The notes under the pieces were generated by a model that was not told where the DNA came from, did not search any database, and saw only the letters and a list, made by a program, of their open reading frames with translations. Shown piece after piece: positions 26,975 through 46,359 of a stretch of DNA of 47,890 nucleotides. Position 1 is the stretch's first letter; every line of letters starts with the position of its first letter. Source of the DNA: a virus (taxonomy: Duplodnaviria > Heunggongvirae > Uroviricota > Caudoviricetes); the IMG/VR virus record IMGVR_UViG_2671180896_000002. One strand, 5' to 3'. The position numbers and the translations under genes were made by a program.

Positions 26975-27075
26975 AGCCTCACCTCCGCACGGAACGGATG
27001 GCATAGTTATTATGTGTAGGCTTTCAGACACATCAATCAGAGCCTTAATTGATATATATGCTGGAGACGATGCAA

Positions 27076-27100
27076 TATAAAAAGCTCGCCGTAGCGAGCT
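27076..27100 (-). terminator. Rho-independent terminator between moron lipoprotein genes and the lysis cassette
   Basis: Minus strand: AGCTCGC-TACG-GCGAGCT followed by TTTTTATATT. Confidence 0.55.
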
Positions 27101-27225
27101 AATATAATGTATTTCTCTGATATTATGTTTATTTGTATTAGCTCAGACTTGACATCACAGGTTTCGTATATAGAACATCATCAAATCTGTCAGTTTGCTA
27201 TGAATGAGATATAGTAATTGAAGAG

Positions 27226-27621
27226 CTAACCTCGCATGTCAAAGCCAGATTTCTGAAAATCTCTGTAGACTTCCGGATTGTTGAAGGCCGGAAATTTGGC
27301 TTTATGAGCTGCGGACTTTATCGCTTCGCAATAGGCTTTATCACCGTTACTGGTAGATATTTTTAACGCCGTGCCATCCTGAGAGAATTCCATATGCAAC
27401 CTGCATTTTTTCCCTTTCCAGTTATGCGGCTCATCAAGTTTGGCATTAATTGCAGCTCTGATTCCCCGCGCTTGCGCCCCCCATTCATCCTGATCATCCC
27501 AGCGTCCTGAACTGCAACTACCTGTAGCAGTAGTTTTGTGGCAATCTGAAGGGTGTAAAGGTGTGCATCCCGCAACAAAACCGACCCAAAAAGTCAACAT
27601 AACGATTTTCTTTAATCCCAC
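27226..27621 (-). CDS. Lipoprotein with TolA C-terminal (domain III)-like region, paralog 1
   Basis: 131-aa ORF; signal peptide plus lipobox (FVAGC); C-terminal KGKKCRLHMEFSQDGTALKISTSNGDKAYCEAIKSAAHKAKFPAFNNPEVYRDFQ follows the same pattern as paralog 2 and TolA domain III. Confidence 0.6.
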   Translation of the reverse strand: MGLKKIVMLTFWVGFVAGCTPLHPSDCHKTTATGSCSSGRWDDQDEWGAQARGIRAAINAKLDEPHNWKGKKCRLHMEFSQDGTALKISTSNGDKAYCEAIKSAAHKAKFPAFNNPEVYRDFQKSGFDMRG

Positions 27622-27771
27622 TTCTTGCTCCTCAATCCATTAAAATCTCAGCAATAGTAGTTGTTACGTCCGCCACTGGCTCAGAGCTGACTATCCGCTA
27701 AATTTAGCTCAGTGCCGTAGCTGTGTCAGAACAAACCTAAGCCGAAACCGTTTATTACAAAACAATAAATA

Positions 27772-28200
27772 TCAGGGTTTAAAATCCAGCACCCCATTTT
27801 GAAATACTTTATATACTTCCGGCGAAGGGGGGGCAGGTATATCAGCATTCTTTATCGCATTCATCGCTTCACGACATAAATCGAGGTCTCCACTTTCTCT
27901 TTTAACCTCCAGTAGAAGGCCATTCGGGGCCATATGCATTCTCAGTGTACACTCTTTTCCTGAATACTTACTCGCATCCCCGAACTGTTTTTCGATGGCG
28001 CTCTTGATTTGATGGGCATACAGACGGATATCCTCACTAACATCAGAAGTACGTTCAGATGAACTCACATACTGTGTCTCTATTGCTTTATCGGAGTAAT
28101 ATGATGTACGGTCATGATAATTTGTCGATACAGCATCAGTGCACCCGATAATAATCCCACTAATAATCAACGTAAGAATTGATGCGCTACGAAAACCCAT
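27772..28200 (-). CDS. Lipoprotein with TolA C-terminal (domain III)-like region, paralog 2
   Basis: 142-aa ORF; lipobox (IIGC); C-terminal YAHQIKSAIEKQFGDASKYSGKECTLRMHMAPNGLLLEVKRESGDLDLCREAMNAIKNADIPAPPSPEVYKVFQNGVLDFKP closely resembles the C-terminus of E. coli TolA as I recall it (...YAGQIKSAIESKFYDASSYAGKTCTLRIKLAPDGMLLDIKPEGGDPALCQAALAAAKLAKIPKPPSQAVYEVFKNAPLDFKP). Confidence 0.7.
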   Translation of the reverse strand: MGFRSASILTLIISGIIIGCTDAVSTNYHDRTSYYSDKAIETQYVSSSERTSDVSEDIRLYAHQIKSAIEKQFGDASKYSGKECTLRMHMAPNGLLLEVKRESGDLDLCREAMNAIKNADIPAPPSPEVYKVFQNGVLDFKP

Positions 28201-29138
28201 TTTTCCTCACATATGTCATATAGTAAAGGATTATATATACCGTTGTTTTGGACGCTCAAACAGCGAATCAGATCAAATAAAACGCACATTTGTTAACATT
28301 TACACAAAGTCTGCGTGGGATATTCTGAAAGAATATCCATAATGTGGAGAGAATCTATTGAAGTGCATGGTGCCGGGTGCCTCCCGGTGAACAAAATGTT
28401 CGTGATACCTGTCGGCGACAGAAAAGGTTAATGGTATCACCCCACCGCACAGGGGGATTCACCATGCAGGAGTTTTCTTAGCAAACTCACTGCGCGCCCG
28501 GCAACTCCCAACCACATAAAATGCGGAGTTTGTGGTATTTATGCATATAACTCGCAGGAATTATCTTAAAAAACTGATGTCGATCCGGATTAAAAAGAAG
28601 CAGGTCATCATCAGATGACTGGAAAAAAGGAAAACAAAAAATACTCATCATACAGTTTTGATTGCAGGGATGAGCCTGCTATGCACAATATGCAGAATAT
28701 AAGCAAGATAAAAATATGCAGGCATATTATTTCGGGTTTTGTTATTAACACAACCTTTTTAATAATCATTTGGCATACAATAAACCAGCCCAAAAAGAAC
28801 CGCCTAAACAGGCGGTTGGTCAATACAAAGGATGCTTCGTCTTTATTATAGTAATCTGAGGCGTCGGGTGTCTTGTATCAGACAACATATTGTCCCGCTA
28901 AACAGCGAATTACAAACCACCCTGCAATGATCTCTCATCTCATTTTATATGAGTTGACGACATCAGGATAACGCATCATCAGCCCCTGCCAAGAAATATC
29001 AAAACTCCCGCCAGCAATGTGTTATCACAATATTGTAAAAAAAACACAGCACCGAAACTATAACTGGTCTCTGTTATAATTTGGAGCAGAAAGACCAGTT
29101 GCCCAACTAGCAGCATTCTCCCCTGCTTTCCTGACGTA

Positions 29139-29166
29139 AAAAAACCGCATTAAGCGGTTTTTTTAC
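29139..29166 (-). terminator. Strong hairpin with flanking A and T runs, candidate late terminator (tR'-like) downstream of the Q-like gene
   Basis: AAAAAAACCGC-ATTAA-GCGGTTTTTTTA; on the minus strand the stem is followed by a 7-T run; about 80 nt downstream of the 180-aa gene stop. Confidence 0.55.
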
Positions 29167-29244
29167 GATGTCCATGTCTGCAATCCGCCTCGCGATACAG
29201 CTTTGCGAAGCATAGCAAAATTGAAGCAGTTTATACGTAAGAAA

Positions 29245-30946: not shown

Positions 30947-31033
30947 ATGGAAAACAACAAATCTGTACATTACGTTCCTTTTTTATCTGTAATACTTTTT
31001 GTTTTATGCTGTGCGTGGGCATTATTTTTATAA
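30947..31033 (+). CDS. Small hydrophobic peptide (28 aa), candidate small membrane protein/toxin
   Basis: ATG preceded by AAGGTGAG SD at 6-nt spacing; MENNKSVHYVPFLSVILFVLCCAWALFL, a single predicted TM segment; not in the supplied ORF track (too short). Confidence 0.3.
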   Translation: MENNKSVHYVPFLSVILFVLCCAWALFL

Positions 31034-31124
31034 AAATATTTACAGATGAAGTAAACCCGCCAATCAGGTTAACTGTGGCTGCGTTGAGGATGCATAATAC
31101 ATCAGAGGTTGCGGGGATTTCTCC

Positions 31125-31147
31125 CATAAGCGCTAACTTAAGGGTTG
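31125..31147. repeat. IS186 left terminal inverted repeat
   Basis: CATAAGCGCTAACTTAAGGGTTG; exact reverse complement of 32441-32463. Confidence 0.9.
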
Positions 31148-31173
31148 TGGTATTACGCCTGATATGATTTAAC

Positions 31174-32292
31174 GTGCCGATGAATTACTCTCACGATAAC
31201 TGGTCAGCAATTCTGGCCCATATTGGTAAGCCCGAAGAACTGGATACTTCGGCACGTAATGCCGGGGCTCTAACCCGCCGCCGCGAAATTCGTGATGCTG
31301 CAACTCTGCTACGTCTGGGGCTGGCTTACGGCCCCGGGGGGATGTCATTACGTGAAGTCACTGCATGGGCTCAGCTCCATGACGTTGCAACATTATCTGA
31401 CGTGGCTCTCCTGAAGCGGCTGCGGAATGCCGCCGACTGGTTTGGCATACTTGCCGCACAAACACTTGCTGTACGCGCCGCAGTTACGGGTTGTACAAGC
31501 GGAAAGAGATTGCGTCTTGTCGATGGAACAGCAATCAGTGCGCCCGGGGGCGGCAGCGCTGAATGGCGACTACATATGGGATATGATCCTCATACCTGTC
31601 AGTTCACTGATTTTGAGCTAACCGACAGCAGAGACGCTGAACGGCTGGACCGATTTGCGCAAACGGCAGACGAGATACGCATTGCTGACCGGGGATTCGG
31701 TTCGCGTCCCGAATGTATCCGCTCACTTGCTTTTGGAGAAGCTGATTATATCGTCCGGGTTCACTGGCGAGGATTGCGCTGGTTAACTGTAGAAGGAATG
31801 CGCTTTGACATGATGGGTTTTCTGCGCGGGCTGGATTGCGGTAAGAACGGTGAAACCACTGTAATGATAGGCAATTCAGGTAATAAAAAAGCCGGAGCGC
31901 CCTTTCCGGCACGTCTCATTGCCGTATCACTTCCTCCCGAAAAAGCATTAATCAGTAAAACCCGACTGCTCAGCGAGAATCGTCGAAAAGGACGAGTAGT
32001 TCAGGCGGAAACGCTGGAAGCAGCGGGCCATGTGCTATTGCTAACATCATTACCGGAAGATGAATATTCAGCAGAGCAAGTGGCTGATTGTTACCGTCTG
32101 CGATGGCAAATTGAACTGGCTTTTAAGCGGCTCAAAAGTTTGCTGCACCTGGATGCTTTGCGTGCAAAGGAACCTGAACTCGCGAAAGCGTGGATATTTG
32201 CTAATCTACTCGCCGCATTTTTAATTGACGACATAATCCAGCCATCGCTGGATTTCCCCCCCAGAAGTGCCGGATCCGAAAAGAAGAACTAA
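31174..32292 (+). CDS. insL: IS186 transposase (IS4 family, DDE)
   Basis: 372-aa ORF (M)PMNYSHDNWSAILAHIGKPEELDTSARNAGALTRRREIRDAATLLRLGLAYGPGG..., recognisable as IS186/IS421 transposase; sits inside the inverted repeats. Confidence 0.9.
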   Translation: MPMNYSHDNWSAILAHIGKPEELDTSARNAGALTRRREIRDAATLLRLGLAYGPGGMSLREVTAWAQLHDVATLSDVALLKRLRNAADWFGILAAQTLAVRAAVTGCTSGKRLRLVDGTAISAPGGGSAEWRLHMGYDPHTCQFTDFELTDSRDAERLDRFAQTADEIRIADRGFGSRPECIRSLAFGEADYIVRVHWRGLRWLTVEGMRFDMMGFLRGLDCGKNGETTVMIGNSGNKKAGAPFPARLIAVSLPPEKALISKTRLLSENRRKGRVVQAETLEAAGHVLLLTSLPEDEYSAEQVADCYRLRWQIELAFKRLKSLLHLDALRAKEPELAKAWIFANLLAAFLIDDIIQPSLDFPPRSAGSEKKN

Positions 32293-32440
32293 CTCGTTGT
32301 GGAGAATAACAAAAATGGTCATCTGGAGCTTACAGGTGGCCATTCGTGGGACAGTATCCCTGACAGCCTACAAAACGCAATTGAAGAACGCGAGGCATCG
32401 TCTTAACGAGGCACCGAGGCGTCGCATTCTTCAGATGGTT

Positions 32441-32463
32441 CAACCCTTAAGTTAGCGCTTATG
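32441..32463. repeat. IS186 right terminal inverted repeat
   Basis: CAACCCTTAAGTTAGCGCTTATG; exact reverse complement of 31125-31147. Confidence 0.9.
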
Positions 32464-32485
32464 GGATTTCTCCCCGCCGGTCCTC

Positions 32486-32641
32486 TTACTCCCCAAGTTC
32501 GTAAGCTGTGAAGACAGCGACCTCCGTCTGGTCGGTTCGGATTCGTACCTCGCAGAGGTCTTTCCTCGTTACCAGTACCGTCACTATAACGGTTAAACAG
32601 ATGACGATCAGGGCGACTAACATCGCCTTTTGCTGCTTCAT
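32486..32641 (-). CDS. hok: Hok/Gef-family type I toxin (small membrane toxin)
   Basis: MKQQKAMLVALIVICLTVIVTVLVTRKDLCEVRIRTDQTEVAVFTAYELGE (51 aa), near-identical in pattern to HokD/RelF and HokC; the supplied ORF extends in frame upstream to 32698. Confidence 0.85.
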   Translation of the reverse strand: MKQQKAMLVALIVICLTVIVTVLVTRKDLCEVRIRTDQTEVAVFTAYELGE

Positions 32642-32970
32642 AGCCTGCTTCTCCTTGCCTTTCGGCACGTAAGAGGCTAACCTACATGTGCAAAGCATGA
32701 AATTGGCCTCAGATTAATGTTAAGCGTCTTGCCGGATGCGTAATGTTAACTGGGGCTTTTCTCTATCTGCCTTTGATGTTCATGCCCGAGGCAGATAGCC
32801 TCAAGTATCCGCAGCTATTTGTCTGCTGTTACCACCTACCTGCGCCAATCACTGACTCTACAAAGATCTATCCGCGATAACATTTTGAGTTTAAGAACTT
32901 TTGCGTACGCACCAAAAGATGCATATACTAGACTAGTCATAGTTCTAATCTGCTTGATTATGGAGTCAGG

Positions 32971-34029
32971 ATGAGTTTCCTTTCTGAACAAGACGTACAA
33001 AATTTAGTCATTAATAAAATGATCTTTCACGTTGTAGGTAAGAATCTTGAAGCACCGACACTTCTCAAAGAAATAAAACCAGTTCAGCATGTGGATTTTT
33101 TTCTTGAACGTATCAAATCTTCACTGAAAGGAAATCTTTTCACTTTTCTGGAGAATTCAAATACCGAAAGAATCCTGCGTATCATTAGAGATAAAGCAGA
33201 TGCTGAAGCTAATTGTTTTACAGAACAATCGAAGCTACTGGCCAGTGATTTTCAGTCACACCATTCTAGCGGTAACACGAGTATGGGATGCTTTTTCTTA
33301 TTTGAATTGGTTTCAGATAAGGAAAAATTATATGCAATTATAAAATACGATAATGAAGATGTGGTTCGTTATGTTCTTGACGAAAAGTTATCTGAAGAAC
33401 AAATGCCTACTTTAGAAAGATTTCATGAAACTTTCGTAAAAAAAGCTGAGGCAATGCAAAAAATAGCGTTAATTCAACTTGATCCAAGTGGGAAAGGCGG
33501 GAAAGTTATTGTAAAAGACAGGAGTAAAAGAACCAATATTTCAGGATATTTTAAAGGCTTCTTAAATGTTAAAAGAGTCAACTCTGAAATTGAACTTTGC
33601 AATAAGCTTATTGATGCGCTGAAAATAACCTTCAAAAGGCATAAAGAATTATTACCAGAGTCAATTCAAAAAAGCGGCGTAAATAAAATATATGAAGTTT
33701 TAAGCAGAGCTGATTTCGAATATAATCCTGAAGATGCTTCTCCGTTATTGACCAGCATTTTTGGGCCGTTAGATGAAAAATCACCAATTCTCAACACATT
33801 CAAAACTCAAACAAAAAATGCTGGTATTGAAGGCGAATCCTTTACTGTAAAAGCAGATGGCATTCATAAACCACCAAGACGAAAAATTGAAACTGCAGAA
33901 AGTGTAGTAATTAGTTATAATGAAGATGACCGTCCAGAAATAAGAAACTTAGATGATGGGCGAAAACAAATTATTGTTACTACTGCGAGGATTATTACTG
34001 ATGACATCGATACTTCAAAAAATCGATGA
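32971..34029 (+). CDS. NdpA/YejK (NA37)-like nucleoid-associated-protein-family protein, 352 aa
   Basis: ATG with GGAG SD; motifs NKMIFHVVGKN, MGCFFLFELVSDKEKLYAIIKYD and ISGYFKGFLNVKRV parallel YejK motifs (ALHQLIK, GGFVLFCHYRYLAVEYLL, YLTFLKGRVGRKV) as recalled; AT-rich gene on the strand opposite to flanking phage genes. Confidence 0.55.
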   Translation: MSFLSEQDVQNLVINKMIFHVVGKNLEAPTLLKEIKPVQHVDFFLERIKSSLKGNLFTFLENSNTERILRIIRDKADAEANCFTEQSKLLASDFQSHHSSGNTSMGCFFLFELVSDKEKLYAIIKYDNEDVVRYVLDEKLSEEQMPTLERFHETFVKKAEAMQKIALIQLDPSGKGGKVIVKDRSKRTNISGYFKGFLNVKRVNSEIELCNKLIDALKITFKRHKELLPESIQKSGVNKIYEVLSRADFEYNPEDASPLLTSIFGPLDEKSPILNTFKTQTKNAGIEGESFTVKADGIHKPPRRKIETAESVVISYNEDDRPEIRNLDDGRKQIIVTTARIITDDIDTSKNR

Positions 34030-35434
34030 GTCTATACAGGCGTCAAGGAAAGACCCTGAATTTTTGGCATCAGAATCAATAAAAAATGATTCTGCGCGCG
34101 TTCTAATTTCTGCCAAAATGGACAAAGATGCACTCATTCTTTGGCAGTACGTTTACGAAAACGTACCAAATTGGATTGAAATTACTGTTAAAGATGACTG
34201 TAATGACGAAGTAAAACCATCGTCATGCAGTGAAGGTGATAAACTTAACATTACGCTAAAATGCATTGCATTCGAAAATAACAGGTATATTTTTACGCTC
34301 GAAGGGTGGAATGTTTTTCTACACAATGATGATTTAGTATCAATAACCAATAAAGTGAATATTCTCGGTTTGAAACATGGATTTGAAACTTTAGGATATT
34401 CTGTTGAGCCATGGAACCATGCTCCAGAAAAAATTGAACCTAATGAAACCGTACGAACTTCAATCAATTTACAGAGCTACGTTAAATTCTATTCTAGTGA
34501 GTTCATGCCTGCATCTGATATAGCTCCTTGGGTACTTTATAAAATGCCTGAGGCAGAGGACAACTTTTTCAAAAAATGGTTACAAGTTTCCTGCAATATG
34601 CTTTGTCGCACTCTCGTTAATGAATTATTAGCAGATGAAAAGAAATCAATTTGTTTAACTGGAAAGCCACCAAAAAAATTAATTTATGGAGATCCAGACA
34701 TTCTGCTTTCCGACTATTCAGTTTTACAAACTGTAATAAACTGGATCTTTATTGAGGGCAATGAGATTGAACTCAAACATACTTTCTTCACAAGTGAGTT
34801 AGCACGAGAATGGCCAGAGTATGTATCCTTCTGTGAGGGTTTACCAAAAAAACTCCCTATGGCCTTTGAGTCAGCAAAATTACTATATAAGGCCCACATT
34901 CGCGCTAGCAGCAGAGAGACTATTAAATCTCTGTCCGATCTAAGGAAAACCTTAGCTGAAGACACGCAAAAAATAATAAGTCAGTCTAAAGACATCACAT
35001 CCGCTCTTTGGAAAGATCTGGCTCTGGTTATAAGTCTATTTGCAATAAAATATGCGCTAGACGCATCAAAGATTAATATAACCAATAACATATTCCCATA
35101 TATGTTCTTCGCGTTATCTATATATATTTTTATATCTCAGGTTACAACTCTCTTCATAAATAAAAATTACTTTAAGATACTTGATAATACTAGGCTAGTC
35201 TGGAGAGATAAACTATATGGTTTTCTTGATGATACTGACTATGAGAATCTTGCAGTCACACCATTAAGAGAGGCATACAAAGCTTATCAGATTATAGCCA
35301 CATTCGTTGTGATTCTGACTTTGCTGATTTCATTTATAATGATCATATTAGGATTCTCAATGCTTGATGAACATGCTACGAATGCAATTACCTCTTGGCT
35401 CAGTTCTCACTTAATCAATAGTTACTGTAGTTAA
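34001..35434 (+). CDS. Membrane protein, ~477 aa: N-terminal soluble domain plus three or more C-terminal transmembrane helices
   Basis: Start ATG 34001 (MTSILQKIDESIQ...) overlaps the upstream gene by 29 nt (supplied ORF begins at 33953); C-terminal hydrophobic segments LALVISLFAIKYAL, IFPYMFFALSIYIFISQVTTLFI, IIATFVVILTLLISFIMIILGFSML. Confidence 0.6.
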   Translation: MTSILQKIDESIQASRKDPEFLASESIKNDSARVLISAKMDKDALILWQYVYENVPNWIEITVKDDCNDEVKPSSCSEGDKLNITLKCIAFENNRYIFTLEGWNVFLHNDDLVSITNKVNILGLKHGFETLGYSVEPWNHAPEKIEPNETVRTSINLQSYVKFYSSEFMPASDIAPWVLYKMPEAEDNFFKKWLQVSCNMLCRTLVNELLADEKKSICLTGKPPKKLIYGDPDILLSDYSVLQTVINWIFIEGNEIELKHTFFTSELAREWPEYVSFCEGLPKKLPMAFESAKLLYKAHIRASSRETIKSLSDLRKTLAEDTQKIISQSKDITSALWKDLALVISLFAIKYALDASKINITNNIFPYMFFALSIYIFISQVTTLFINKNYFKILDNTRLVWRDKLYGFLDDTDYENLAVTPLREAYKAYQIIATFVVILTLLISFIMIILGFSMLDEHATNAITSWLSSHLINSYCS

Positions 35435-45962: not shown

Positions 45963-46157
45963 ATGAGATATGACAATGTTAAACCATGTCCATTTTGTGG
46001 TTGTCCATCAGTAACGGTGAAAGCCATTTCAGGATATTACCGAGCGAAGTGTAACGGATGCGAATCCCGAACCGGTTATGGTGGAAGTGAAAAAGAAGCA
46101 CTCGAAAGATGGAATAAACGAACCACTGGAAATAATAATGGAGGTGTTCATGTATAA
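45963..46157 (+). CDS. ralR: Restriction alleviation protein Lar/RalR (type I TA toxin, Zn-finger DNase)
   Basis: 64 aa MRYDNVKPCPFCGCPSVTVKAISGYYRAKCNGCESRTGYGGSEKEALERWNKRTTGNNNGGVHV with CxxC...CxxC. Confidence 0.85.
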   Translation: MRYDNVKPCPFCGCPSVTVKAISGYYRAKCNGCESRTGYGGSEKEALERWNKRTTGNNNGGVHV

Positions 46158-46359
46158 AATTACCGCCACTATTGAAAAGGAAGGTGGCACTCCTACTAAC
46201 TGGACAAGATATTCAAAATCTAAACTAACGAAATCAGAATGCGAAAAAATGCTCTCAGGTAAAAAAGAAGCAGGCGTTTCCAGAGAGCAGAAAGTAAAAC
46301 TGATAAATTTTAATTGCGAGAAACTTCAGTCCTCGAGAATTGCATTGTATTCAAATTAA
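46150..46359 (+). CDS. ydaC: YdaC-like small protein
   Basis: 69 aa MYKITATIEKEGGTPTNWTRYSKSKLTKSECEKMLSGKKEAGVSREQKVKLINFNCEKLQSSRIALYSN; ATG overlaps ralR end. Confidence 0.75.
   Translation: MYKITATIEKEGGTPTNWTRYSKSKLTKSECEKMLSGKKEAGVSREQKVKLINFNCEKLQSSRIALYSN

Follow-up and report, generated by a model that had tools for sequence, protein, structure and literature searches.

The window (the whole stretch of DNA analyzed, 47,890 nucleotides) carries a locus that almost certainly belongs to the hok/mok/sok family and whose toxin arm has probably been disabled, leaving a silenced and decaying toxin gene alongside a Sok antisense RNA that would still be expressed, as in K-12 hokC(gef)::IS186 and hokE::IS186. 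The proposed damage comprises three lesions: an IS186 in the loop of the 3′ GC stem-loop, which leaves fbi and the terminator 1.3 kb off; a −10 box reading ACAAAT at the homologous position, with a 20-nt spacer; and two G-to-A changes in tac that would weaken both tac/fbi and tac/ucb pairing. The three lesions are independent, and each is, judged against the characterized loci, of a kind that is inactivating in R1 or K-12.

The hok/sok pair is a textbook type I toxin-antitoxin system and is enriched in prophages. The window is itself a Rac-type lambdoid E. coli prophage, with recET, ralR, kilR, sieB, a Q antiterminator, lysis genes, and intR by ttcA, a gene content taken from the annotated record of a close relative (L001), which is 97.8–98.9% identical over most of the length and represents a different prophage; the tRNAs annotated in that relative are absent from the window. 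The hok locus lies on the minus strand, between nin-type genes and Q.

The toxin gene, its leader and the antisense RNA

The hok coding sequence (32486..32641, minus strand) is an intact ORF of 51 amino acids plus stop that begins at an internal ATG, at 32641, of a 70-aa ORF and encodes MKQQKAMLVALIVICLTVIVTVLVTRKDLCEVRIRTDQTEVAVFTAYELGE. This peptide scores 75.4 bits against Pfam PF01848 HOK_GEF (cut-off 22) and matches NCBIfam Hok models below their curated cut-offs (44.8 vs 73), and the identical protein WP_197731663.1 is named “Hok/Gef family protein” by PGAP. Together with a 99.4-bit match to Rfam RF01794, the Pfam score bears out the original prediction of a hok-type type I toxin locus, and the HokD/RelF-like character it gave to the 51-aa ORF is confirmed by 46/51 identity (90%) with K-12 HokD, compared with 40/51 (78%) for HokC and 35–41% for HokA, HokB, and HokE. 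The residues conserved in the family, in R1 numbering C16, T18, L30, C31, E32, E41, and Y48/E49 (bioRxiv 10.1101/2025.08.07.668861), are all kept in the alignment as C15, T17, L29, C30, E31, E40, and Y47-E48, and the TACGAA editing context is retained. The window Hok does carry G37D, at a glycine that is invariant across 104 phage copies; glycine 37 is absent from the published list of conserved residues (same preprint). The mok/hok loci of lambdoid and Stx phages share 91–94% DNA identity over window positions 32464–32819, and by sequence relationship the cassette is a member of the lambdoid-prophage hokD/hokW clade with its full leader kept.

The 70-aa ORF is mok (32486..32698, minus strand), which forms a 19-codon N-terminal extension of hok in the same frame, is collinear end to end with curated K-12 MokC, and is preceded by a GAGG Shine-Dalgarno sequence (32707–32710) located 8 nt 5′ of its start. 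Phage homologues carry mok or MokW annotations of equal extent, and in the curated K-12 genome mokC similarly extends hokC in frame, with sokC on the other strand, starting 8 nt into mokC. The out-of-frame mok that had been expected by analogy is thus not what is found here. For R1, the published mok is out of frame; in the R1-type IncFII copy examined it was in frame, and both arrangements occur in the family, K-12 mokB being out of frame and mokC in frame. The architecture of a mok Shine-Dalgarno sequence with an overlapping ORF driving hok is present in the sequence, and translational coupling is presumed.

The 5′ leader of the hok mRNA occupies 32642..32810 on the minus strand, its putative +1 at 32810 being placed by homology with R1 and phage copies and by the Rfam match and alignments. 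RF01794, although named “sok”, matches 32636–32810 on the minus strand over the full length of the model (E = 2e-21; gathering score 59). Because this match is on the hok-sense strand and runs from the homologue of the R1 mRNA 5′ end to the hok AUG, the model recognises the hok leader, that is, the Sok target. Within the leader, the 10-bp inverted repeat of the original prediction is real and sits one base from where it had been put (32763–32798 rather than 32762–32797, minus strand): its arms CTATCTGCCT and AGGCAGATAG match perfectly, at 32763–32772 and 32789–32798, with 16 nt between them. The leader 5′ hairpin that they form is present in minimum free energy (MFE) folds and is kept in R1 via a two-sided compensatory change (R1 U14-A62 vs window A15-U46); a chance repeat is ruled out by its identity with the conserved first helix of RF01794. 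Further into the leader is ucb, the anti-Shine-Dalgarno element AAGCCCC (32752..32758, minus strand), homologous in position to R1 A70-C75, which would pair with the mok Shine-Dalgarno sequence in the closed form; MFE folds do pair mRNA nt 99–105 with nt 55–61.

Base-for-base mapping of curated K-12 sokC places a predicted sok antisense RNA of about 77 nt at 32690..32766 on the plus strand, inside the 32650–32800 interval in which such an RNA had been anticipated, and the alignment to R1 and chromosomal hok loci that the original prediction suggested also located mok, the sok promoter, and tac/fbi. Its predicted fold, in which a long hairpin stands between an unpaired 9-nt 5′ tail and a U-rich tail, has an energy of −28.4 kcal/mol (z = −4.6), equaled by 0 of 200 shuffles, and the RNA is complementary to mRNA nt 45–121, spanning ucb, the mok Shine-Dalgarno sequence, and the mok AUG. 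The candidate sok promoter (32655..32683, plus strand) reads −35 TTGCCT, a 17-nt spacer, and −10 TAACCT, corresponds by homology to the R1 sok promoter TTGCGC-17-TATCCT, and is identical in 80 of the 104 phage copies. A consensus promoter scan of the window did not call it, since it scores below the threshold of the tool, as does that of R1, and its placement therefore rests on homology. The antitoxin arm, Sok with its promoter, looks intact, and we infer its start site and its expression.

IS186 in the 3′ stem-loop

The element downstream of hok is a simple insertion of IS186/IS421 (IS4 family), 1337 bp long (31126..32462, plus strand), complete with inverted repeats at its termini, a transposase of the DDE type, and a duplication at a site that carries the target motif. 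Inverted repeats at 31111–31147 and 32441–32477 flank the 372-aa transposase gene (31174–32292, plus strand), which is convergent with hok, scores 93.5 bits against Pfam DDE_Tnp_1, and is labeled “IS4-like element IS421 family transposase” by PGAP; alignment with K-12 IS186A gave 1335 identical columns. The duplication GGGATTTCTCCC is a 12-bp direct repeat at 31114–31125 and 32463–32474, and its two copies lie respectively in the distal half (31111..31125) and the proximal half (32463..32477) of the 3′ GC stem-loop on the minus strand. In an IS-free allele (L002) the hairpin is intact as GCGGGGATTTCTCCCCGC, beginning 10 nt past the hok stop; in the window this GCGGGGA-GAAA-UCCCCGC hairpin is cut by IS186 between 32463 and 31125.

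The empty site in the IS-free allele, GGGGATTTCTCCCC, is a perfect GGGG(N6)CCCC, and the reported target motif of IS186 is GGGG(N6/N7)CCCC, entered in either orientation (PMC5009759). The allele was found in 29 of 5,426 complete E. coli genomes and is 99.9–100% identical among the genomes listed; 13 of the 29 are occupied by the element, 7 in the orientation of the window and 6 reversed (as in L003). The presence of both orientations at one site means that it was struck at least twice. In K-12, IS186 occupies the homologous hairpin of both hokC and hokE, with duplications GGGATCACTCCC and GGGAGTAATCCC, respectively. The perfect GGGG(N6)CCCC motif is shared by the hairpins of the window allele, hokC, and hokE and occurs in only 2 of 104 phage-type copies, and IS186 is absent from all of the phage-type copies (0/104).

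The position shared with hokC points to independent transposition into a hot spot. Gene conversion from hokC was considered and rejected, as the two insertions differ in their flanks and in the duplicated core (ATTTCT vs ATCACT) and as an empty site and a reverse-orientation allele both exist. More broadly, we would give even weight for and against the proposal that a hok stem-loop carrying GGGG(N6)CCCC acts as a landing pad for IS186, with such alleles being disarmed repeatedly and independently while the phage form, with its imperfect motif, escapes. If this were true, IS186 would act as a recurrent, sequence-programmed neutralisation of prophage and chromosomal Hok in E. coli, with Sok kept. 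Pedersen and Gerdes are said to have described hokC and hokE, in 1999, as inactivated by IS186. All components are already documented, including the RefSeq protein name, the Rfam leader, the hokW-sokW clade, and IS186 in the hokC hairpin; the one mildly new point is quantitative, in that IS186 sits, in one orientation or the other, in 13 of the 29 genomes whose allele offers it a perfect target.

mRNA closure, the promoter and the state of the toxin arm

The IS-free ancestor is proposed to have worked as plasmid R1 does, with hok weakly transcribed into an mRNA of about 416 nt that is closed by tac/fbi and with the mok Shine-Dalgarno sequence sequestered by the upstream ucb anti-Shine-Dalgarno element. 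Slow 3′ trimming to the GC stem-loop would then open the mRNA, translation of mok would drive that of hok, and a short-lived Sok, made from its own promoter within the leader, would pair with the mok start region and lead to RNase III cleavage. When the IS-free allele was aligned with five phage homologues, with K-12 hokD, and with K-12 hokC minus its IS, the conserved module was seen to run from the −10 box through the leader, mok/hok, the GC stem-loop, and a segment complementary to the 5′ end to the terminator. In the MFE fold of the reconstructed IS-free 416-nt mRNA, nt 1–11 pair with nt 374–385, which is the tac/fbi closure of the R1 model.

In the window, the 1337-bp element separates hok from its fbi and terminator. 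The tac element GGAUACUUGAGG (32799..32810, minus strand), a variant of the near-invariant GGGUGCUUGAGG, remains at the 5′ end, and the detached fbi CCUCAACGCAGCC (31077..31089, minus strand), homologous to the near-invariant phage CCTCAACGCACCC, is now beyond the IS and 1.3 kb off, so that tac/fbi pairing is impossible in the IS-interrupted RNA. The detached terminator (31054..31070, minus strand) is a weak terminator-like hairpin, AACCUGAUUGGCGGGUU followed by UUACUUCA, that aligns with what in phage alleles is a clear terminator, AACCCGCTTCGGCGGGTT-TTTGTTTTT; a consensus scan called a terminator in a phage allele (L011) and none in the window. The IS also cuts through the stem-loop at which the processed, active mRNA ends. 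In R1, toxicity is abolished by 19 substitutions located in this stem-loop of the truncated mRNA (PMC9841398), and for gef/hokC the downstream IS186 is believed to interfere with fbi and with the normal processing of the mRNA (PMC3562002).

The tac changes bear on the same structure. Across 104 phage and prophage copies the 5′ end is near-invariant as GGGTGCTTGAGGC, with fbi CCTCAACGCACCC, whereas the window allele and its IS-free sisters have GGATACTTGAGGC and CCTCAACGCAGCC. One of the two G-to-A changes in tac, A5, aligns with R1 G4A, a change that drastically lowers Hok protein at a site where, as at C5 and T6, any substitution abolishes toxicity (PMC9841398); by alignment, window A5 would be equivalent to this loss-of-function mutation. 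The predicted local tac/fbi duplex falls to −9.3 kcal/mol in the window allele vs −21.5 for the phage type, and the tac/ucb duplex to −5.1 vs −10.7 kcal/mol, with ucb unchanged. Two limits apply to these comparisons. The 104 copies offered no covariation of tac with fbi to count, both elements being essentially invariant, so the pairing rests on complementarity and the R1 model. Similarly, whole-molecule MFE folds and base-pair probabilities of the 3′-trimmed mRNA gave no tac/ucb pairing even in the wild-type phage allele, and the whole-molecule fold therefore cannot show that the tac changes matter.

The degenerate hok promoter (32817..32848, minus strand) reads TTGGCG, a 20-nt spacer, and ACAAAT. 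Phage alleles have TTGGCG-17-TAGAAT with the −10 located 6 nt upstream of the start, and a TAGAAT-type box occurs in about 100 copies; the consensus scan that called a hok promoter in the same phage allele as above called none in the window. At the conserved position the window lacks a −10 of the TANNNT type, the rule being broken at −12 and −11. In R1, where the −10 is TATGAT, T-12C, A-11C/G, and T-7C are loss-of-function changes (PMC9841398). Both the promoter and the tac changes are shared with IS-free sisters and predate the IS.

Taking these lesions together, we infer a loss of toxin activity and favor a disabled toxin arm as the probable state of the locus. Several observations count against one part or another of this reading: the IS-interrupted gef of K-12 is reported to be still transcribed, so such loci need not be fully silent; the Hok ORF is kept intact in an allele that scarcely varies among the genomes listed; and IS-free copies could regain closure through a 5′-shifted transcript.

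The first of these observations leads to the better of the two alternatives, which we regard as unlikely: a working toxin-antitoxin pair in which an unrecognised or read-through promoter gives a hok transcript that ends inside IS186, as reported for gef. An mRNA without fbi would be open once made and restrained only by continuous synthesis of Sok, and loss of Sok, for example upon DNA damage as with sokW, would free Hok and cause cell death or help lysis at induction. No damage is seen in the Hok ORF, in mok with its Shine-Dalgarno sequence, or in Sok and its promoter, and the IS has exactly the orientation and junction found in K-12 hokC, the transposase and hok stops lying 194 bp apart at each locus. 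That K-12 locus is reported to make a longer transcript ending in the IS, which is still antisense-regulated (PMC3562002); the Sp5 pair hokW-sokW is functional and mitomycin C-responsive (PMC8621323); and Hok homologues are almost always toxic when overexpressed (42 of the 45 tested; bioRxiv 10.1101/2025.08.07.668861). A working pair is, however, difficult to reconcile with a −10 that breaks TANNNT at two positions and a scan in which no promoter-like site appeared, with tac changes that coincide with R1 loss-of-function positions, and with a split in the 3′ stem-loop, the structure that shields the active mRNA from exonucleases (PMC9841398). Furthermore, as far as the citing account goes, those chromosomal hok loci that were tested gave no post-segregational killing (Pedersen and Gerdes, cited in bioRxiv 10.1101/2025.08.07.668861).

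The other alternative takes up the 5′-shifted transcript and is, in our judgment, quite improbable. Transcription would start tens of bases upstream of 32810, GCUGCG...UUGAGG would pair with CCUCAA-CGCAGC, and IS-free copies would be functional with IS-bearing copies disabled. The extended tac/fbi duplex has a predicted energy of −16.9 kcal/mol, vs −9.3 for the canonical 5′ end, and a C-to-G change in fbi (GCACCC to GCAGCC) completes a match to GCUGC, giving a perfect 6 bp with the GCUGCG upstream of the putative +1. However, most phage copies also have GCUGC upstream of +1 with an fbi that does not match it, so that the match in this allele may be a coincidence; no convincing upstream promoter was found in the window; and tac/ucb pairing is weakened too, with no compensating change in ucb. 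The allele does persist, its ORF intact, in the 29 genomes and in 4 viral contigs. A search for the variant 5′ end elsewhere recovered only the same allele in the same context, in those 4 viral contigs (1 of which is IS-interrupted too), and it was absent from GTDB representative genomes; restriction to one context is as expected of a single derived lineage, and there is no evidence of an independent functional lineage carrying the variant 5′ end.

With a disabled toxin arm as the preferred reading, the original prediction requires some revision. The interval it assigned to the locus, 32486–32970, does hold hok and its leader; it also includes a divergent intergenic region toward the next gene (32825–32970) and omits the detached 3′ part at about 31054–31125. 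Where inactivating changes were to be sought, the Hok ORF has come through and the regulatory RNA and promoter have not, on account of IS186, the −10, and tac; IS186, the non-consensus −10, and the two tac substitutions had all been missed. The suggested role as an addiction or defence module is unsupported for this copy. The two downstream genes encode an NA37-like protein and a 493-aa protein without a Pfam match, and PADLOC, Pfam, and NCBIfam scans of these two genes gave no defence-system match; a survey has found hok to be enriched in prophages and not near defence systems (bioRxiv 10.1101/2025.08.07.668861). Given an IS186 lesion as in K-12 hokC and hokE together with the promoter and tac changes, the locus should not be classed among active modules for addiction or defence. 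Its annotation should be corrected to an in-frame mok and a sok at 32690–32766 on the plus strand. The 29 loci, which are otherwise identical and differ in being IS-free or in having the element forward or reversed, constitute a small natural experiment on the roles of fbi and the 3′ stem-loop in the chromosome.

Comparison with known systems

The nearest characterized relative is hokW-sokW of Sakai prophage 5 and Stx phages, which falls in the same clade with ~91% DNA identity over the whole module, 43/51 identical residues in Hok, an in-frame mok, the same Sok promoter, and a Sok antisense to the 5′ UTR. SokW is 71 nt and antisense to the hokW 5′ UTR (PMC8621323), compared with about 77 nt predicted for Sok in the window. 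Unlike the window, Sp5 has a TAGAAT −10, a GGGTGC tac, a matching fbi, a clean terminator, and no IS, and is functional; hokW-sokW is the only characterised prophage homologue, and it helps phage release, with defence action not demonstrated (PMC8621323).

The K-12 locus hokC(gef)/mokC/sokC shares the lesion. IS186A lies there in the same orientation and at the exactly homologous site, although with the duplication GGGATCACTCCC rather than GGGATTTCTCCC; its mok likewise shares the frame of hok, and its sokC aligns with the window base for base. In contrast to the window, hokC is part of the core chromosome adjoining nhaA and retains a TATAAT −10 and a GGGTGC tac, and the window leader has 18 extra nt in the Sok hairpin. 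The closest toxin is that of K-12 hokD (relF) in the Qin prophage, with the 46/51 identity given above and with a homologous 3′ UTR, fbi, and terminator; however, hokD is fused behind relBE and is without leader, mok, or sok, homology ending ~15 nt before the ATG. K-12-type strains match only window positions 32475–32655.

Plasmid R1 hok/sok (parB), the experimental reference for the mechanism (PMC9841398), has its elements in the order seen in the window, which is tac, the 5′ hairpin, ucb, the mok Shine-Dalgarno sequence, the Sok promoter/dcb, the hok Shine-Dalgarno sequence, hok, the GC stem-loop, fbi, and the terminator. It differs from the window in being plasmid-borne, in mediating post-segregational killing, and in having a far more divergent Hok, HokW and R1 Hok sharing 44% identity (PMC8621323).

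Genes and small features flanking the hok locus

Divergent from hok lies a two-gene moron (32971-35434, plus strand) that serves as a marker of the rare hok allele, which is carried by 29 of 5,426 complete E. coli genomes. The first gene encodes a 352-aa protein of the NA37 (YejK-like) nucleoid-associated family (Pfam, 49.6 bits), and the second, the ORF of which overlaps the first by 77 nt, encodes a 493-aa protein that had no match in Pfam and NCBIfam searches. PADLOC returned no match for either gene.

Just past the detached hok terminator, and convergent with hok, there is a 28-aa hydrophobic ORF, MENNKSVHYVPFLSVILFVLCCAWALFL (30947-31033, plus strand), with a good ribosome-binding site, AAGGTGAG, separated by 6 nt from its ATG. 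The 3′ end of this ORF is contained in an A+T-rich inverted repeat (30982-31000 and 31032-31050), and an NCBIfam search with the ORF gave no match. The ORF may encode a small membrane protein or may have arisen by chance.

The same hok allele also occurs with IS186 reversed at the identical site in six complete genomes, for example at 1356-2701 of NZ_CP150019. A single IMG/VR viral contig has the element in the orientation of the window. These variants form a natural allelic series that could be used to test the role of fbi, the 3′ element of the hok mRNA.

Other RNA genes of the prophage

In the RalR/RalA type I toxin-antitoxin system of Rac, the sRNA RalA acts as the antitoxin. A full-length Rfam match to this sRNA (225 bits, E = 8e-54) was found at 46156-46334 on the minus strand, and the prophage therefore has a second type I system in addition to the hok locus; this RalR/RalA system is apparently intact. 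The sRNA STnc100 was also matched, at 28311-28497 on the minus strand (86.6 bits vs. a Rfam gathering score of 47), inside a segment at approximately 26989-29183 that has no counterpart in L001, a closely related annotated prophage. The corresponding region of L001 (16439-16592) contains tRNA-Gly and tRNA-Thr instead, and ARAGORN detected no tRNA in the entire window.

Strand and length of Sok

The Rfam family RF01794, named for the sok antitoxin, matches 32636-32810 on the hok-sense strand, a span that runs from the 5′ end of the hok mRNA to the hok AUG. The match above gathering threshold is therefore to the leader and indicates neither the strand nor the extent of Sok RNA, and automated annotation by this match would assign sok to the wrong strand. 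At 32718-32735 lie 18 nt, AGCGTCTTGCCGGATGCG, that are present in the prophage clade but absent from K-12 hokC/sokC; they lengthen the Sok terminator hairpin by adding a small apical stem (GCGUC/GAUGC). Because of this insert Sok is predicted to be longer here, at approximately 77 nt, than K-12 sokC, which lacks the insert and is 59 nt.
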